From Deltaproteobacteria bacterium (GTDB lineage Bacteria > Desulfobacterota > Desulfomonilia > UBA1062): 64,000 nucleotides of DNA. Location: positions 249,857 to 313,856 of the forward strand of contig JAHDOV010000004.1 of assembly GCA_018434685.1 (NCBI GenBank), read 5' to 3'. The notes under the pieces are model-generated. The model saw only the letters and a list, made by a program, of their open reading frames with translations, did not search any database and was not told the DNA's origin. A program made the position numbers and the translations under genes. Positions 1 through 6,685 of the stretch are shown here, piece after piece. Each line of letters begins with the position of its first letter. The first letter of the stretch is position 1.

Positions 1-177
1 GTCATAGGTGTTCTTTCTGATGGCCTCGATCCCCTCTTCAGCCGTTTCAAAGGCATCGAGAGAACACCCTTCACCTGCAAAGAAGAGGCTCAGGGAATCC
101 CGGATCCACTCGTCATCATCGATGAGCAGGATCTTTAGGTCCTTGAGTTTTACAAAGAGATTGCCCGTTGTTTTCAT
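1..177 (-). CDS. Response regulator receiver-domain protein (partial, runs off the window's left edge)
   Basis: Not in ORF track. Manual translation from ATG at 177: MKTTGNLFVKLKDLKILLIDDDEWIRDSLSLFFAGEGCSLDAFETAEEGIEAIRKNTYD, a typical REC N-terminus (KILLIDDD). ATGA overlap with the upstream stop. Confidence 0.88.
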   Translation of the reverse strand, partial: MKTTGNLFVKLKDLKILLIDDDEWIRDSLSLFFAGEGCSLDAFETAEEGIEAIRKNTYD

Positions 178-1811
178 GACAAGATATCGTCCTTAAGCCG
201 TTGTCCTGACGCCTGTTGGGGCTCGGGTTTGTTGATGAGCTGAATATGCCGTTTCAGGTCCGTGCCATAGTTTTCCAGGGAAAAGGCGAGAGATTCCAGC
301 ATAACCTTTGCGTAGAGGGGATTGTATCGGGCCCATTTTCTGTTCTTGTCACAGAACTCGGACCGGCTCAGGGTGAATTCGACCCGGTCGAGGCCTTCGC
401 CGTAACTGCGCTTGTTCTCATGCATTTCTTCGATTTTCTGCCCGTAGCCGGTCTTCCACAGGTCGTCGGCAAGATCGGCAAAAACAGAGGAATACTCATC
501 GAGAGACCGGGTAATCTCCGGGTTTTTGACGAGGGCCTCTGCTCCTTTCTGGGTCGGACGGGCCTTGAACCTCGTGCAGGCGGTTCTCCAGATCTCTGGA
601 TTATCAATAAGCATACAGGGCCGCAGCAGGTTGTCGGTATGGGGCTGGTTCATCCGGATAAAGGTGAAAAACGGCGATTGGAGAGCCTCCACCAGGGTAC
701 ACTGATGGATGTTATGGGTTGCATGATGGGCAAAGATGCACGGCTCAACCTCTCCACGGCTGGTGATGTGTAGCAAACGCCTTCCGCCTGCGATACAGCC
801 ATGAACCGTTGGGGCATCGGTCAAGAAATCCATGAGGAACAAGGGATGCCTTTCGCGGTATTCCCTGATAAAGGAACCAATGTCCAGGCGCTGCTGCGGT
901 GTCGGCATGAGGCTGAGGTCAGGGTCTGACCCCTCGGGCATGAACAGGAAATTCCATCCGAACAACATCCCCTGCTTCTCCCAGAAATCCAGGAACTCAG
1001 GGGAGGTAAGGGTGTCATAATTTTTCGAGGTGAGCACGAAGGACATGCCGTACATGAGCGAGCGTCTTTTCAGGAGCGATACCGAAGCGAGCATCTGCTC
1101 GTATACCCCGTGGCCGAAGAGATCATCGGTGTCCTCCTTCGTGCCGGGAATTCTGAAGACCGGGACCATGTTTTTTTGTTCATGGAGTTGGTCTGCCATA
1201 TCGGGTGTGATGCAGGTCCCGTTGGTAAATATCAGGAACAGGCAGTCTCTATGGTTTGCGGCAATGCGGGAGAGGTCATCGAAGAGGAGAAAGGGTTCCC
1301 CTCCGACGATGGTGTAGAGGTGAACCCCGATTTCCTTGCCCCCCTTGATGATCCTGTCCAGTGCTTTCAGGTCCAGTTCGTTATCAGGTGCAGGCTTGAC
1401 GTCGGCTGTCTTTCCCCTGGGGGAGAGATTGTTTCTCATGGTCGGGCTGATCAGGATCGTGAAGGGAGGGCAGAACCCGTATTTTTTCTTGAGAAAATGC
1501 GCTTTTTCCATCCACTCCAGGACACAGCAGCCGAGGAAGGTTTCCACGAAGCTCTTGAGCTGACCGGGGTCTCTTGACAGGAGCTTCCGGAACGACTGGT
1601 TTGTGCCGGGGTGCGCCTGTATCCACCTCATCATTTTCCCGAACGGTCCCTGGGTACTGAACAGGGGATCCAGAGAGGCCAGCATTTTCATCAGGGTCCC
1701 CAGGTGATCATCAGGATTCTTCCGGAGAGTGTGGACAATAAAGTCTGCACTCTTGGCCAGCCCTGCCTGTCTGGAGTTGTTCTCCGCAGTGTCTTGTCTC
1801 CACATAGTCAT
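174..1811 (-). CDS. Radical SAM/SPASM(twitch)-like protein lacking the CxxxCxxC motif (probable pseudo-enzyme)
   Basis: Has ILISPTMR, GGEP, FTNG and GCIAGG..EPC..RPC motifs. The cluster motif position reads NNLSPRGK. Confidence 0.85.
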   Translation of the reverse strand: MTMWRQDTAENNSRQAGLAKSADFIVHTLRKNPDDHLGTLMKMLASLDPLFSTQGPFGKMMRWIQAHPGTNQSFRKLLSRDPGQLKSFVETFLGCCVLEWMEKAHFLKKKYGFCPPFTILISPTMRNNLSPRGKTADVKPAPDNELDLKALDRIIKGGKEIGVHLYTIVGGEPFLLFDDLSRIAANHRDCLFLIFTNGTCITPDMADQLHEQKNMVPVFRIPGTKEDTDDLFGHGVYEQMLASVSLLKRRSLMYGMSFVLTSKNYDTLTSPEFLDFWEKQGMLFGWNFLFMPEGSDPDLSLMPTPQQRLDIGSFIREYRERHPLFLMDFLTDAPTVHGCIAGGRRLLHITSRGEVEPCIFAHHATHNIHQCTLVEALQSPFFTFIRMNQPHTDNLLRPCMLIDNPEIWRTACTRFKARPTQKGAEALVKNPEITRSLDEYSSVFADLADDLWKTGYGQKIEEMHENKRSYGEGLDRVEFTLSRSEFCDKNRKWARYNPLYAKVMLESLAFSLENYGTDLKRHIQLINKPEPQQASGQRLKDDILS

Positions 1812-1894
1812 TCACCCCTTTCCTGTTGAAACCGGCCTGGATCGATGTTCGTTGCCGGGAAACGGAGGTAGCCCGGCTTTGATTTTCGGCCAGA

Positions 1895-2356
1895 TCATGA
1901 TCCTATCCTCGTTGCTTGTTCTTCCTGGTACCCGACGATGGTGGCATGCACGATTTTGTCAAAAAAGAGATTCACGTAGGAGAAGAGCTCGGTGGTCTGG
2001 TTCAGGGCGTAGCCGTCGTCGAGGGATCTCTTTTCCGTGATGTAGCGGTAGATCTTTTTTTTAATGAGGAAGAGGACCTGGATGACCTCACCGAGGGGGA
2101 TTCCCTCCTTGGATCTTACCCTGCCGAGACCCGTATAGTAGGCAAAGACGACATTCTTTGAGGTGTTGTTGTGGAGCCAGCTGGAAAGCCGTTTATACAC
2201 GTTGTAAAGAACCTGGTGCAGCATTTCGTGCAGGATATCTTCCGGAAGATCACGGTAGTGCAGGGTCTCTTCCATGCTTCGAATTTCCGTGTTCAGCTCG
2301 TGGATCAGGAGTTCCTCGTTTTTTTCGATGAGCTCCATCAGGTTGTGGTAAAACAT
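1895..2356 (-). CDS. Stand-alone all-helical protein resembling RsbRD-N/non-heme globin-fold sensor domains
   Basis: 153 aa with YxxLGRxRxxEGIPLxEV and FFDKxxxxxxxGY patterns. AAGGAGG RBS upstream. Confidence 0.65.
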   Translation of the reverse strand: MFYHNLMELIEKNEELLIHELNTEIRSMEETLHYRDLPEDILHEMLHQVLYNVYKRLSSWLHNNTSKNVVFAYYTGLGRVRSKEGIPLGEVIQVLFLIKKKIYRYITEKRSLDDGYALNQTTELFSYVNLFFDKIVHATIVGYQEEQATRIGS

Positions 2357-2469
2357 CGATGCCCTCCTTGTGCGGTAAGAGAACTGTGCTCTTGAAGCAT
2401 AGATGGCGCCGGTATGTGCACGGCGGTGTACCGTGCCGTTGATTTCCCCCTCCCCTCCTTGTTTGAGAC

Positions 2470-2485
2470 AGCATAATACATGCCA
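2470..2485 (-). promoter_or_regulatory. sigma54 -24/-12 promoter for the leftward operon
   Basis: Minus strand TGGCATG-TATT-ATGCT, with correct GG-N10-GC spacing. Confidence 0.75.
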
Positions 2486-2602
2486 TCAAGGTTCACGGGC
2501 GTTTCTTTCCGGGTATATCCTTTAATTAAGAGGACATATCCTGGAAATCGTGTCTGTTCGTGGTCGATGAGGGCAAGCGGGGTGTCGTAGAGGGGGAAAA
2601 AG

Positions 2603-2638
2603 TAGAAAAAACTCTAACTGCATGTAGAAAAATCTCGA
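2603..2638. promoter_or_regulatory. Tandem enhancer-like palindromes TAGA-N6-TCTA
   Basis: TAGAAAAAACTCTA (2603-2616) and TAGAAAAATCTCGA (2625-2638), 22 bp apart. Confidence 0.65.
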
Positions 2639-2912
2639 ATCCTCTGCCTGGCCCGGGTGAGAAAAACAGGATCTTGAGCCAGGCTTTGAATCTATTTCAT
2701 TGATTATATATTCAATAATTAATTCTGAGCCCAGGGAGCAGATCCTGAGGACCGGAACGAATCGATGGTCTGGTGCATGCTGACCGCAGATCGCCTGCAC
2801 GTATTGTCCAGGGCAGGTACCAGGCTATACAGTATTTGCTGGAGCGGTTCTTGTGCTGTCCACCGGTACGGATGCCGTTATCGGGATACGGTGAGTATCT
2901 CCCCAAGAGAAG

Positions 2913-2979
2913 TAGAAGATTTTCAACTTTTTCTCTGAGGGGATAGAGAAATCTCTAACTGACATTAGAAGAAAATCTA
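2913..2979. promoter_or_regulatory. Second set of TAGA-N6-TCTA enhancer-like palindromes
   Basis: TAGAAGATTTTCAA (2913), TAGAGAAATCTCTA (2944) and TAGAAGAAAATCTA (2966). The last two are 22 bp apart. Confidence 0.65.
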
Positions 2980-3075
2980 AAATCGAGCACGGCCCCCGGG
3001 ATGAGCAGGTGGGCTTCATCAACCGTATGATTCTAAGGCGTTAAATATACCAAAGACAATGCCTGATTCAAATCG

Positions 3076-3091
3076 TGGCATAGTTCCTGCT
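3076..3091 (+). promoter_or_regulatory. sigma54 -24/-12 promoter, rightward
   Basis: TGGCATA-GTTC-CTGCT. Confidence 0.7.
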
Positions 3092-3325
3092 CCATATGGA
3101 AACCAGGATGCATCACCTGAGACCTCTTGTTTTTATCGTGCCGTTGGAAGGCCCAGGGCGGGAGGATATACACGGCAGTACGTTCTGGCATTTCCTTCAG
3201 GATGGTGCCCGGGGGATGAGCATGCCGGCATGCATAAGCCAGTTTTTCCCAGGGGGAGTCGCAGATATATAGTGTGAAAATTCGCTCAAAATGGTATAGG
3301 TTGGGGTAGGTTGCGGGGTGACGAG

Positions 3326-4726
3326 ATGACTCAACCAACATTATTCAAAGGCAAGTTGTCAAGGAAGAACAAGCACGAGGAAAACGAATCCATCTACCGT
3401 CAGTTTTTCGAAGGTTCTCCGGATGCGCTGTATGTGACGGACGCCGAAGGCGTGATTGTGAACGTGAACAAGGCGTTCATAGAGTTGTTCGGCTACACAA
3501 AAGAGGAGATCATCGGCCAAGACATCCGCACCATTTACGTTAGCGATGACGAGAAGACCCGGTTCTGGAAACAGATTAAAAAGGAAGGATCTCTGATTTC
3601 CGCCGAGGCCCGACTGGTCCGGAATGACAGGACCGTACTCATCTGTCAGCATTCCTGCTATGTGACTACGGATTCACGGGGGGATAGTGCGGCTTACACG
3701 GGCATTGTCCGGGATATTACCGCTGTCAGAAACGATCAGGAGGCGCTACGGAAAAAGACGCGGGAACTCTCCGACAAGGTCAAGGAACTCGATTGTCTCT
3801 ATGAGATCTCCACGGTCATAGAGAGGAAAGGGCACACCTTTGACGATATCGTCAAGGGCTTCCTGGAAGTCATTCCACGGGCAGTGAACTATTCCGGGAT
3901 TACCTGTGCCCGCATAACCCTCGACGGGGAGGTTTATACCAGCAGGAACTTTCAGCAGACCCCCTGGCGGATGGCCGTTGATATCATGTCGCGGTGTCAT
4001 CTCGTGGGTACCCTGGAAATCTTCTACCTTGAAGAGCGTCCGGCAAACCACTACGGCCCGTTTTCCGATGATGAGAAGCGGGTTGCCGAGATGATCTCGT
4101 CGAGACTCGGGAGATTGCTCGCCCGCAAACAGGCCGAAGAGATGCTCCGGGAAAGCGAGGAGAGATACCGGAGCCTCTTCGAGGATTCCCATGATGCCAT
4201 CTATACCACATCGCGAGACGGGATACTGCTGGACGCCAACCAGGCAACCCTGGACCTGTTCGGCTACAGCAGGGAAGAGATGATCGGCATGGATATCCAG
4301 CAGCTCTACGTGAACCTCCAGGAGCGGATGAAGTTCCAGACAGAGGTCGAGGAGCAGGGTTCCGTGAGAGACTATGATGTCTGGCTGAAGAAGAAGGATC
4401 GCTCCATCATGAACTGTCTTTACACCTCAAGCGTGAGGAGATCAAGAGAAGGAGAGGTCATCGGGTACCACTGCATCGTCAGGGACATCACCGAGCAGCG
4501 CCAGGCAGAGGAGGTGCGGCAGGGGCTCATAGAAGAGCTCACCGTAGCCCTGGAGAAGATCAAGACCCTGCGGGGCCTGATCCCTATCTGCGCCACCTGT
4601 AAGAAGATCCGCGACGACAGTGGGTACTGGAATCAGCTGGAAGAATATATCGAGGCCCATTCCGATGTGGTGTTCAGCCACGGGCTGTGCCCCCAGTGCC
4701 AGAGAAGATTCGAGGAAGACGACTGA
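3326..4726 (+). CDS. PAS-domain sensor protein with C-terminal Cys/His-rich module (no kinase domain)
   Basis: Two PAS/PAC domains ending in RDIT, a GAF-like middle region, and C-terminal PICATCKKIRD..YW..SHGLCPQC. ATG 3326 preferred over TTG 3311. Confidence 0.88.
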   Translation: MTQPTLFKGKLSRKNKHEENESIYRQFFEGSPDALYVTDAEGVIVNVNKAFIELFGYTKEEIIGQDIRTIYVSDDEKTRFWKQIKKEGSLISAEARLVRNDRTVLICQHSCYVTTDSRGDSAAYTGIVRDITAVRNDQEALRKKTRELSDKVKELDCLYEISTVIERKGHTFDDIVKGFLEVIPRAVNYSGITCARITLDGEVYTSRNFQQTPWRMAVDIMSRCHLVGTLEIFYLEERPANHYGPFSDDEKRVAEMISSRLGRLLARKQAEEMLRESEERYRSLFEDSHDAIYTTSRDGILLDANQATLDLFGYSREEMIGMDIQQLYVNLQERMKFQTEVEEQGSVRDYDVWLKKKDRSIMNCLYTSSVRRSREGEVIGYHCIVRDITEQRQAEEVRQGLIEELTVALEKIKTLRGLIPICATCKKIRDDSGYWNQLEEYIEAHSDVVFSHGLCPQCQRRFEEDD

Positions 4727-4755
4727 GGAGCCTTCTCAGGGAAGTCGACAAGAGA

Positions 4756-6294
4756 TCATGGTGCGGCAGGCTCCCTTTTTATGGGCAGCTCTATGATGAA
4801 TTGGGCACCGCCCAGCCGGCTTGCGGTTACCCTCAGCACGCCGCCGTGATCCGTAACGATCCTGCGGCAGAGACTCAATCCAATCCCGGTGCTGCCGTCT
4901 TTTGTGGTGTAGAACGGATCGAATATCTTGTGTCGTCTGTCCGGGGTAACCCCGGGGCCGGAATCTTCCACGCTCATGATGATGGATTCTCCCCGGGCGA
5001 ATGAGGATATCCTGATCTTCTTCCCCTCGTCCATATCCTTCATGGCCTCGGCTGCATTGGTTATGAGGTTCAGAATCACCTGCTCTATGAGCTGGGGGTC
5101 GGCATAGCACGGCGGGGTGTCCGTGCTGAGGCAGAGCTGAACCTCAACACCGGTCTTGCGCAGGGTGACCGAAGACAGCGCCAGGGCATCTTCGATGGGA
5201 TCGTTGATGGCGATACGGCTGAACCGGGGTTCGCTCGGTTTGGAAAAATCCATGACCCGCTTGATGACCGATTCGATCTTCAGCGAGGCCGAATGCATCT
5301 TTTCGAGAACATCCAGGGCTCTTTCCAGGCCATCTCCCCGCACCAGGATCTTTTCCAGGGCATCGAGGTAGATGTTGATACCTGACAGGGGGTTGCGTAT
5401 CTCGTGGGCTATGCCGGCAGCAACATGCCCGAGCGACGTCATCCGGTCCTGTACATGGAGGAGCCGTTCCAGTTCCCTGGCCATGGTAACATCCATGATA
5501 TTGATGAGGATCGCCGGGCTCCCCTGATATTCAATCGGGCTTGCACGACAGTGCAGCCACTTCATGTCATGGAGGTCGTCCCTGTTGCCATGGGGGAAAA
5601 ACCGCACGACCATGCCGGGGTGCTTTTCTTTTCCCGACAGGAGGTCCCTGTAGAGGGATTTCACCAGCGGGACATCATCGGGATGGATGTGCTCATACAC
5701 TGAGGGTGCATGGGTTATGGGGAGCGGTCCCAGGAGCCTCTGCTGTTCGGGATTCCGGTAAATGATCTGTTCGTCCTGAATGATGGAGATGCCGGTGAGG
5801 GAATACTCCACCAGTTCCCGGAAAAGTTGTTCGCTCTTGGTCAGGGCGTCCTGGGCCTGCCGGTACCCAGTGATATCATGGCCGGCGGAGATGACGGTGG
5901 CAGTGGGCAGCCTGAAGTTCGCCCACAGCTGGATGCGTGTGGAGCCGTCTTTGTTGGTAACACGATATTCGCGGAAGTTTCCGTCCGGATTGGTTTTATT
6001 CCGCAGGGCCCGCCCGTATTCCCGGGGATCGGGATACAGGATGGCCAGAGAATCATCGAAGGCCAGGAGTTCCTCTTTGCTCCACCCGAGCATTTTTTCA
6101 CACTGGGTATTCCACAGCAGGCACCGGCCCCGGGCGTCGAAGGCGTCAATCATGATCGGTGCCTTTTCAAAGATCGTCCTGAATTTCTCCTCGCTTTCCC
6201 TCAGAGACCGGATCGTCTCTTCCTGCAGGGCAATCTTTTCGGTCAGCTCCTCTAATCGGTTCTCCAGGTCTTTCCGTCTTGGTTTCGGCGCCAT
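4756..6294 (-). CDS. PAS-domain sensor histidine kinase (NtrB-like)
   Basis: AHEIRNPL H-box, NLITNA, DSGPG, FDPFYTTK and GTGIGL. GGAGG RBS before ATG 6294. Confidence 0.93.
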   Translation of the reverse strand: MAPKPRRKDLENRLEELTEKIALQEETIRSLRESEEKFRTIFEKAPIMIDAFDARGRCLLWNTQCEKMLGWSKEELLAFDDSLAILYPDPREYGRALRNKTNPDGNFREYRVTNKDGSTRIQLWANFRLPTATVISAGHDITGYRQAQDALTKSEQLFRELVEYSLTGISIIQDEQIIYRNPEQQRLLGPLPITHAPSVYEHIHPDDVPLVKSLYRDLLSGKEKHPGMVVRFFPHGNRDDLHDMKWLHCRASPIEYQGSPAILINIMDVTMARELERLLHVQDRMTSLGHVAAGIAHEIRNPLSGINIYLDALEKILVRGDGLERALDVLEKMHSASLKIESVIKRVMDFSKPSEPRFSRIAINDPIEDALALSSVTLRKTGVEVQLCLSTDTPPCYADPQLIEQVILNLITNAAEAMKDMDEGKKIRISSFARGESIIMSVEDSGPGVTPDRRHKIFDPFYTTKDGSTGIGLSLCRRIVTDHGGVLRVTASRLGGAQFIIELPIKREPAAP

Positions 6295-6685
6295 GGTCTC
6301 AGAACCTCCGCGTCCCAGCTGCTGTATGTCGGACATTCCCATCGTGGTGGTCCGGCGGGTACCCGTTGCGTGTGAACACCGGTTGTTTCATCAGAATATA
6401 GCAGATCTCACTCTAGGAATATTTTCCTTATAGGGCAAGGCTTTTTTATTCTGGCAGTTTTTGGGGCAGAGCGATTCGCTGGCGGAAGCAGGATAACGGT
6501 GCGGCTGAGCGACATTGATCGAGCGAGCAGCCTCGGTCGAAATTTCAGGGCAGGATGTAGTTTTCCCTTTTCATTTCGGCCTGATTTAGGTAAAAGAGCA
6601 CTTTTCCTCCCTGGTGGATTACTGCTGGAATATTTGAAAATGCGGTGCTAAGAAGGGGAAAAATTGCTTTAGAGAAGGTGTCACG

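Follow-up and report, generated by a model that had tools for sequence, protein, structure and literature searches.

Organization of the locus

A 64,000-nt stretch of the genome of a Desulfomonilia bacterium (source genome G000; G000:C46:249857-313856), all of which is called the window below, opens with three co-oriented minus-strand genes behind a single sigma54-type promoter consensus: a stand-alone globin-fold gene, a homologue of the radical S-adenosylmethionine (SAM) enzyme Mss that has lost its cluster-binding motif, and a stand-alone receiver gene. The initial annotation had placed one -24/-12 promoter ahead of a globin-fold protein, a pseudo-radical-SAM protein and a receiver, with a PAS sensor and a PAS kinase alongside (3311-4726 and 6342-4756), and the sequence bears out this layout, the promoter being conserved in relatives as well. 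Our verdict is that the locus is probably a regulated lipid-modification operon with a pseudoenzyme found in one species, its parts known and its arrangement genus-level. The features are as follows.

1-177, minus strand: 5' part of the stand-alone receiver (REC) gene, 137 aa at full length (C46:250033-249620).
174-1811, minus strand: Mss-family radical SAM/SPASM-type gene, 545 aa; cluster motif lost, C-terminal Cys339, Cys358 and Cys399 retained.
174-177, minus strand: ATGA stop/start overlap between the Mss homologue and the receiver, in this lineage only.
1410-1433, minus strand: former CxxxCxxC motif, now N-N-L-S-P-R-G-K.
1895-2356, minus strand: stand-alone non-heme globin-fold gene (RsbRD_N/HisK_N-like), 153 aa, with Arg81 at the proximal-His position.
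2362-2369, minus strand: Shine-Dalgarno-like AAGGAGGG ahead of the globin start, read from the sequence.
2470-2485, minus strand: sigma54 -24/-12 promoter consensus (TGGCA-N7-TGC at 2485-2471), kept in G001 and G003.
2602-2639, minus strand: pair of imperfect 16-bp palindromes, 22 bp apart, predicted to serve as upstream activator sites and placed 154 bp before the -24 element.
2943-2980, plus strand: weaker candidate pair of activator sites that would serve the divergent promoter, ranking 5 of 262 with a 10-site matrix and outside the top 10 with a reduced matrix.
3076-3091, plus strand: second, divergent sigma54 consensus ahead of the PAS gene, with a matching divergent site in G001 and G003.
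3311-4726, plus strand: divergent PAS-PAS protein with a C-terminal CxxC...CxxC domain and no kinase domain, syntenic in G001, G003 and G044.
4727-4755, no strand: position of the missing NtrC-type activator gene (present in G001, G003 and G044); no remnant detected.
4756-6342, minus strand: PAS histidine kinase whose partner activator is missing; it shares 74-75% identity with the G001 and G003 orthologues.

Taken alone the promoter pattern is weak evidence, as the window holds 5 matches against 2.79 +/- 1.77 expected and 20 of 100 shuffled sequences reach 5. The consensus is conserved approximately 106-129 bp upstream of the globin gene in the source genome and in two sister genomes of the same genus (G001 and G003), and rpoN is present in the source genome; together with the predicted activator sites, these features point to a sigma54-dependent operon.

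The initial annotation had also let the operon run past the window edge, and here the data were not in agreement. Beyond the window edge there remain just the final 237 bp of the receiver gene, followed by a convergent gene for an 819-aa Fe-S flavoprotein/nitroreductase (L001:13136-15595, plus strand), and the unit therefore consists of three genes. On the minus strand no terminator-like site was found from the promoter to the receiver, and one weak match lies within the receiver gene. The ATGA overlap, which the initial annotation had noted, is present as described and is derived: in G001 and G003 the Mss homologue stops 25-30 bp before the receiver start, and the overlap arises through an 11-codon extension of the Mss homologue in the source lineage. 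Because the first ATG of the Mss homologue reads ACG in three of the four other sequencing runs, its true start is probably the second ATG, at 1805.

Identity of the radical SAM homologue

The 545-aa protein is 40% identical over 431 aa (pairwise E 1e-100) to WP_149122472.1 (P0124), entered in Table S21 of PMC13159169 as the Mss homologue found in Dictyoglomus thermophilum, a producer of diabolic acid. The same source sets the threshold for a Mss homologue at E <= 1e-50 with at least 30% identity to a confirmed Mss, and the values given here, which lie beyond both figures, are those for this proxy homologue and not for either of the confirmed T. ethanolicus and T. maritima enzymes. The predicted structure (predicted local distance difference test score, pLDDT, 84.2) is a partial TIM barrel with a SPASM/twitch-type extension, the best Foldseek matches being SuiB, SkfB and anSME (E 2.5e-11 to 1.6e-9), and the loop that formerly carried the cluster motif is poorly predicted, residues 135-140 falling under pLDDT 50.

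Six conserved Mss blocks are given in the supplement of PMC13159169. The GGE SAM-binding motif of block II is present (G170-G171-E172-P173), as are the block V residues D328-F329, H348 and VEPC 355-358 (W330L and one Asn-to-Thr change differ) and the three Pro and Cys of block VI (P390, P398-C399, P405). Block I, CNxxCxGC, is lost: the window protein reads N-N-L-S-P-R-G-K where the G001 and G003 orthologues have the motif as CxxxCxxC, and this three-Cys pattern for the SAM-binding cluster occurs nowhere in the 545 residues. Block III, a Gly-rich region with an Arg, carries R232F and S220R. Given the similarity to the proxy, the retention of blocks II, V and VI, the loss of block I and the missing Arg of block III, we therefore call the protein Mss-derived and, judging by its sequence, not a functional member of the family. 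PF04055 (Radical_SAM) scores 27.2 bits, under its cut-off of 29.5.

It was not unreasonable to consider that this clade is instead a SPASM-type relative acting on a different substrate, probably a lipid, in which case the operon would have nothing to do with membrane-spanning lipids. The identity to the reference homologue is just 39-40%, the protein has an extra C-terminal extension of approximately 80 aa, and the literature covered holds no assayed Mss from Desulfomonilia. Against this, the proxy similarity lies 50 orders of magnitude past the published homologue threshold, the conserved blocks match, and no other NCBIfam radical SAM family exceeds 40 bits (cut-offs 180-725), which makes the proposal very unlikely. 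The scores, every one far below its family cut-off, also ruled out a maturase of RiPPs (peptides made by ribosomal synthesis and modified post-translationally).

Mss homologues in Desulfobacterota have already been reported (PMC11868695). Copies of the family in other genera adjoin DUF374, patatin, PLD-family and TetR genes, neighbors that fit a lipid role for the Mss homologue. A second Mss clade (L032-L044) is found with a patatin gene, and in some genomes also with a PLD-family or TetR gene; several genomes of the taxonomic family hold both clades, and all of their copies are intact. We also considered a tetraether synthase that might have replaced the dead Mss. The Tes-like radical SAM gene of the source genome on contig C44 (L195:6322-7692), which occurs in two of 52 family genomes, scores 568.8 bits as TrsS (cut-off 490) and 364.9 as Tes (under its cut-off of 450), and as a TrsS gene in a DVU_155x-type cluster it was ruled out for this role.

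Loss of the cluster motif and selection on the remaining protein

The loss of the CxxxCxxC motif from the protein that the initial annotation had called a pseudo-radical-SAM is real. Among 117 homologues that span the motif (an alignment of 120 rows less 3 fragments that lack the region), CxxxCxxC is retained in 115, and all three Cys are absent from the window protein alone; the remaining one, P0020 (CNLKCRGRY), has lost just the third motif Cys, independently. Similarly, six of the 112 Mss open reading frames in the loci examined, a set that takes some genomes twice, are without the motif, namely the window protein and five fragments. The loss is common to contigs of three of four other runs, the fourth not covering the motif, and as these contigs come from three other studies an assembly error was ruled out; nor is a compensated frameshift evident in the codon alignment. 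Two other strains read Ser at the first motif position, one step from Cys, and one of the samples from the other studies also contains a relative with an intact motif. Both sister genomes that share the gene order keep the motif, and by sequence comparison the pseudoenzyme is confined to the source species.

The motif loop is one codon shorter than in G001 and G003, and the three Cys codons differ by at least seven base changes (or a deletion). We considered whether the Mss homologue is simply without function and in slow decay, its reading frame staying open through translational coupling to the receiver and through the cost of a misfolded product, with the loss of the activator gene described below as part of the same process. 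The motif has been lost in one species-level lineage only, the ATGA coupling arose in that same lineage, and the pN/pS among strains, 0.26, exceeds the omega of 0.15 between species, all of which agree with decay. The strain value comes from 25 differences in the Mss homologue (13 synonymous, 12 non-synonymous), a subset made up of 21 coding differences among 40 of the 169 listed and 4 others.

Other observations argue against decay. Of the 88 alignment columns that at least 90% of 103 background homologues conserve, 8 are changed in the window protein compared with 8-13 in four intact close orthologues. The 8 comprise the three Cys, the following Tyr and the block III Arg, which are cluster/SAM positions, and three others, and with 5 of 8 at such positions the damage is therefore concentrated on the SAM/cluster site; for all the base changes in the Cys codons, no more than three conserved columns have changed elsewhere. 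In a three-taxon codon fit over 533 codons, omega was 0.148 on the path to the source genome, a path that spans time before the motif loss, and 0.138 in the intact sisters (p = 0.75), and omega = 1 was rejected with p = 4e-27. We used this fit in place of a six-taxon one, which gave omega 0.13-0.15 with unstable model comparisons (two-ratio p = 0.049). No frameshift or stop was present in the Mss homologue among the differences listed from the four other runs. The Mss homologue is thus under purifying selection despite the loss of its motif.

The globin-fold protein

The globin-fold assignment of the initial annotation is supported by structure matches. The model (pLDDT 86.1) best matches pXO2-61 (PDB 3PMC; Z 15.2, root-mean-square deviation 2.6, 131 aligned residues, 18% identity), with globin-coupled sensors next (Z 13.0-13.6). 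A weak profile alignment, of probability 7.6, sets Arg81 against the proximal His of these sensors, and Arg occupies this column in 138 of 150 members of the globin family. With Arg81 at the proximal F8 position the protein lacks the hallmark of a heme globin-coupled sensor, and the modeled fold without a proximal His is that expected of a non-heme globin sensor. Pfam HisK_N scores 16.8 bits, under the gathering score of 24.4, and weak HisK_N and RsbRD_N matches were each obtained for 10 of 16 family members. A sequence search of the PDB with the globin profile returned only designed helical proteins and noise. The proteins pXO1-118 and pXO2-61 are said to bind fatty acids.

At E <= 0.001 the globin family has 743 representatives, with six copies in the source genome and members in 35 of 201 phylum genomes. 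The context, with Mss and PAS genes as neighbors and no dsr genes, ruled out identity with DsrT. A search for longer fused globins found none, a weak negative, although NUDIX fusions occur in phylum genomes, and a search for a kinase carrying this globin domain was likewise a weak negative. In several phylum genomes the globin is fused C-terminally to a longer protein (L181:1483-2502, L182, L185, L179, L188), and one scanned fusion partner is a Zn-ribbon NUDIX domain. Globin paralogues (a tandem pair at G000:C1:27888-28979; L014, L016, L148) sit beside genes of heme biosynthesis (hemB, ahb-like) and of ATP synthase in several genomes of the family.

Gene order in relatives

The Mss homologue gene is present in 20 of the 52 family genomes, and the globin-Mss-receiver order occurs in three of five genomes of one Desulfomonilia genus (G000, G001 and G003), with the motif intact in the latter two, whose Mss orthologues are 60-64% identical to the window protein. 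The globin adjoins Mss in only these three genomes among the 112 Mss loci examined, and conversely no Mss gene lies within 1.5 kb in 41 of the 43 globin loci examined, the exceptions being G001 and G003. In two other genomes of the genus, G002 (79% complete) and G004 (94%), icd lies directly beside argB, and the whole block is therefore absent there. G011, from another genus, has the activator, promoter, Mss and receiver without the globin, and in G044 the arg-linked set of kinase, activator, PAS and receiver genes recurs with neither globin nor Mss. In the comparison of neighborhoods across genomes that the initial annotation had proposed, the order is thus kept in G001 and G003 and missing from G002 and G004. 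The three-gene combination is a local, genus-level arrangement of known parts and not a widespread system.

In the source genome the operon sits within a block of approximately 20 kb between icd and argB (L001:2853-15595 and window 1-6342). Genes for acyl-CoA ligase, dehydrogenase, thiolase and SDR proteins lie in this block as well, along with another pair of kinase and activator genes. The C-terminus of the PAS protein (window 4570-4726) forms a CxxC-KKIRDD...SHG-CPxC domain with no Pfam match.

A kinase, activator and receiver module

The receiver (PF00072, 85.9 bits, cut-off 30.2) consists of a REC domain only, with its acidic pocket DDD, phospho-acceptor Asp65, Thr93 and Lys115 intact, as expected of a single-domain response regulator. 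It is 80% identical to its G001 orthologue and 60% to a paralogue on contig C36 of the source genome. Among 101 genomes of the class, 13 carry orthologues, at 14 loci. At 9 of these a sigma54 consensus stands directly upstream of the receiver, at 4 Mss intervenes, and one short contig shows neither. An activator subfamily (REC-AAA-HTH with a GAFSGA loop) is encoded within 1.5 kb of the receiver at 8 of the 14. The receiver stands without either globin or Mss at 10 of the 14, and three of the four Mss-bearing module genomes also carry the globin. These sequence comparisons place the receiver in a family-wide module of kinase, enhancer-binding activator, sigma54 promoter and receiver.

The initial annotation had read the locus as a signalling module rather than a biosynthetic cluster. 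It was right on the sigma54 link, on the tie to two-component signalling and on the lack of a peptide (RiPP) cluster, and the conserved trio with a pseudo-enzyme core that it implied does not hold, given that the radical SAM protein is a Mss homologue that is almost always intact, that globin and Mss are adjacent in only three genomes, and that most receivers have neither. A related proposal joins globin, pseudo-radical-SAM protein and receiver in a dedicated complex for sensing lipid or redox state, with its output going to the neighboring kinase. Three co-oriented genes behind one promoter, a fold nearest the stand-alone kinase-inhibiting sensor pXO2-61, the retained auxiliary-cluster cysteines and an order conserved in three genomes would all suit such a complex. 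On the other hand, the enzyme is intact in two of the three genomes with this order, the globin family extends over the 35 phylum genomes and is free of nearby Mss at nearly all of its loci, and the receiver so commonly occurs without either partner. A three-protein signalling complex is a possibility that we regard as improbable.

In G001 and G003 the activator gene lies between the kinase and the PAS gene, and in the source genome it is cleanly missing. The source genome also has a paralogous kinase-activator-promoter-receiver set on C36 (G000:C36:162153-166825, L144; 52%, 67% and 60% identity for kinase, activator and receiver, respectively), which on its sequence is the likely trans-acting partner of the window promoter. 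In 10 of 11 loci a paired 38-bp site precedes the -24 element by 121-126 bp, scoring 310 compared with 209-218 in five shuffles (G051, a near-duplicate of G048, was omitted from this search). The window pair, at -154, comes second among the 262 sigma54-like sites of the genome, whichever of two matrices built without it is used. Three more high-ranking sites at the usual spacing occur on contig C6 of the source genome. They precede a ComEA-like helix-hairpin-helix protein (L151:476-829) and a secreted-looking 208-aa protein (L151:2164-2790; no Pfam match), each behind a sigma54 consensus, and the third, at C6:145, points off the contig end.

Interpretation

We put at roughly 55% the probability that the operon is the sigma54-driven output of an NtrC-type two-component switch, carrying in this genus the globin and Mss genes ahead of the receiver, and that the cluster-less Mss homologue has been retained, probably in a non-catalytic role in which it would still bind lipid and an auxiliary Fe-S cluster; survival in the source species as a non-catalytic protein for one or the other, lipid or Fe-S binding, is likely. 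In such a switch the PAS kinase would phosphorylate the activator, which would bind the paired upstream sites and open the sigma54 promoter. In the sister species the intact Mss would couple phospholipid acyl tails to give membrane-spanning lipids as a conditional response, and negative feedback would come from the receiver, by drawing phosphate off the kinase. In the source genome the C36 activator may act in trans, and the globin may use Arg81 to bind a fatty acid or an anionic lipid.

Several observations weigh against this interpretation. The block is absent from G002 and G004, and the local activator gene has been deleted. Compared with those of relatives, the activator sites are set 30 bp further out, and a reduced matrix built without the genus and C36 sites leaves the C36 site outside the top 10; with the deletion, these make trans-activation uncertain. 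The omega path includes time when the motif was still present, and the strain differences counted are part of a larger set. The globin is a candidate lipid binder, proposed from the fold of its model and from the fatty-acid binding reported for its nearest match. Finally, PMC13159169 reports that the presence of a Mss homologue and the production of lipid do not always go together.

Two of these observations, the deletion of the adjacent activator in the same genome and the dispensability of the island in G002 and G004, also favor the slow decay of a functionless Mss homologue considered above, which we take to be the main competing explanation. Set against them, besides the few changes outside the cluster/SAM site and the lack of a frameshift or stop among the listed differences, are an omega equal to that of the intact sisters and the retention of the promoter and the predicted activator sites. 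Decay is a serious contender that we nonetheless think unlikely. A bolder proposal is that within this one species the dead Mss became a pseudoenzyme sensor, keeping its acyl-chain pocket and auxiliary Fe-S cluster, and that with the fatty-acid-binding globin and the newly coupled receiver it reports membrane lipid or redox state to the switch that once controlled the synthesis of membrane-spanning lipids. This is speculative, and we would give it a small chance.

In the open-access literature we found no description of a radical SAM pseudoenzyme with this motif, of a cluster-less Mss, of this operon, or of mss under sigma54 control. Mss has been assayed by heterologous expression only, and PMC13459092 describes mechanistic work on it as still to be done. 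If our interpretation is correct, mss can be controlled by a sigma54 two-component switch whose activator sites can be defined, making the trigger of membrane-spanning lipid synthesis testable, and a natural cluster-less Mss with intact sisters would be a tool for separating the roles of the SAM and auxiliary clusters. It would also mean that screens for producers of lipid biomarkers that rely on a BLAST threshold count dead Mss copies.

Comparison with known systems

The window protein has the GGE, DF, VEPC and block VI motifs and the SPASM-type radical SAM fold in common with Mss (T. ethanolicus WP_129545148.1, T. maritima Tmari_0825, D. thermophilum WP_149122472.1; PMC13159169), and differs in lacking the block I CNxxCxGC and the block III Arg and in its C-terminal extension. 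Its context is one of sigma54 and two-component genes, whereas T. maritima mss is given with a TetR gene (PMC13159169).

The globin resembles the non-heme globin sensors (pXO2-61/pXO1-118, PDB 3PMC, HisK_N; the RsbR N-domain, 2BNL; RsbRD_N; DsrT) in its predicted fold, in having no proximal His and in standing alone, but it scores under the Pfam cut-off and has no dsrMKJOP or stressosome genes nearby. DsrT has been modeled on the same fold, and dsrT lies directly before dsrMKJOP (PMC6018805).

With NtrB/NtrC-type systems the module shares a PAS kinase, a REC-AAA-HTH activator, paired upstream sites, a -24/-12 promoter and a single-domain receiver. It differs in that the activator loop reads GAFSGA and not GAFTGA, that the constant target is a stand-alone receiver, and that the local activator has been deleted in the source genome.

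A described radical SAM/SPASM family from halophilic archaea, TIGR04347 (pseudo-SAM/SPASM), is also named for its absent canonical motif. The window protein scores 27.3 bits against this family, well short of the cut-off of 525, which points to an unrelated lineage and an independent loss.

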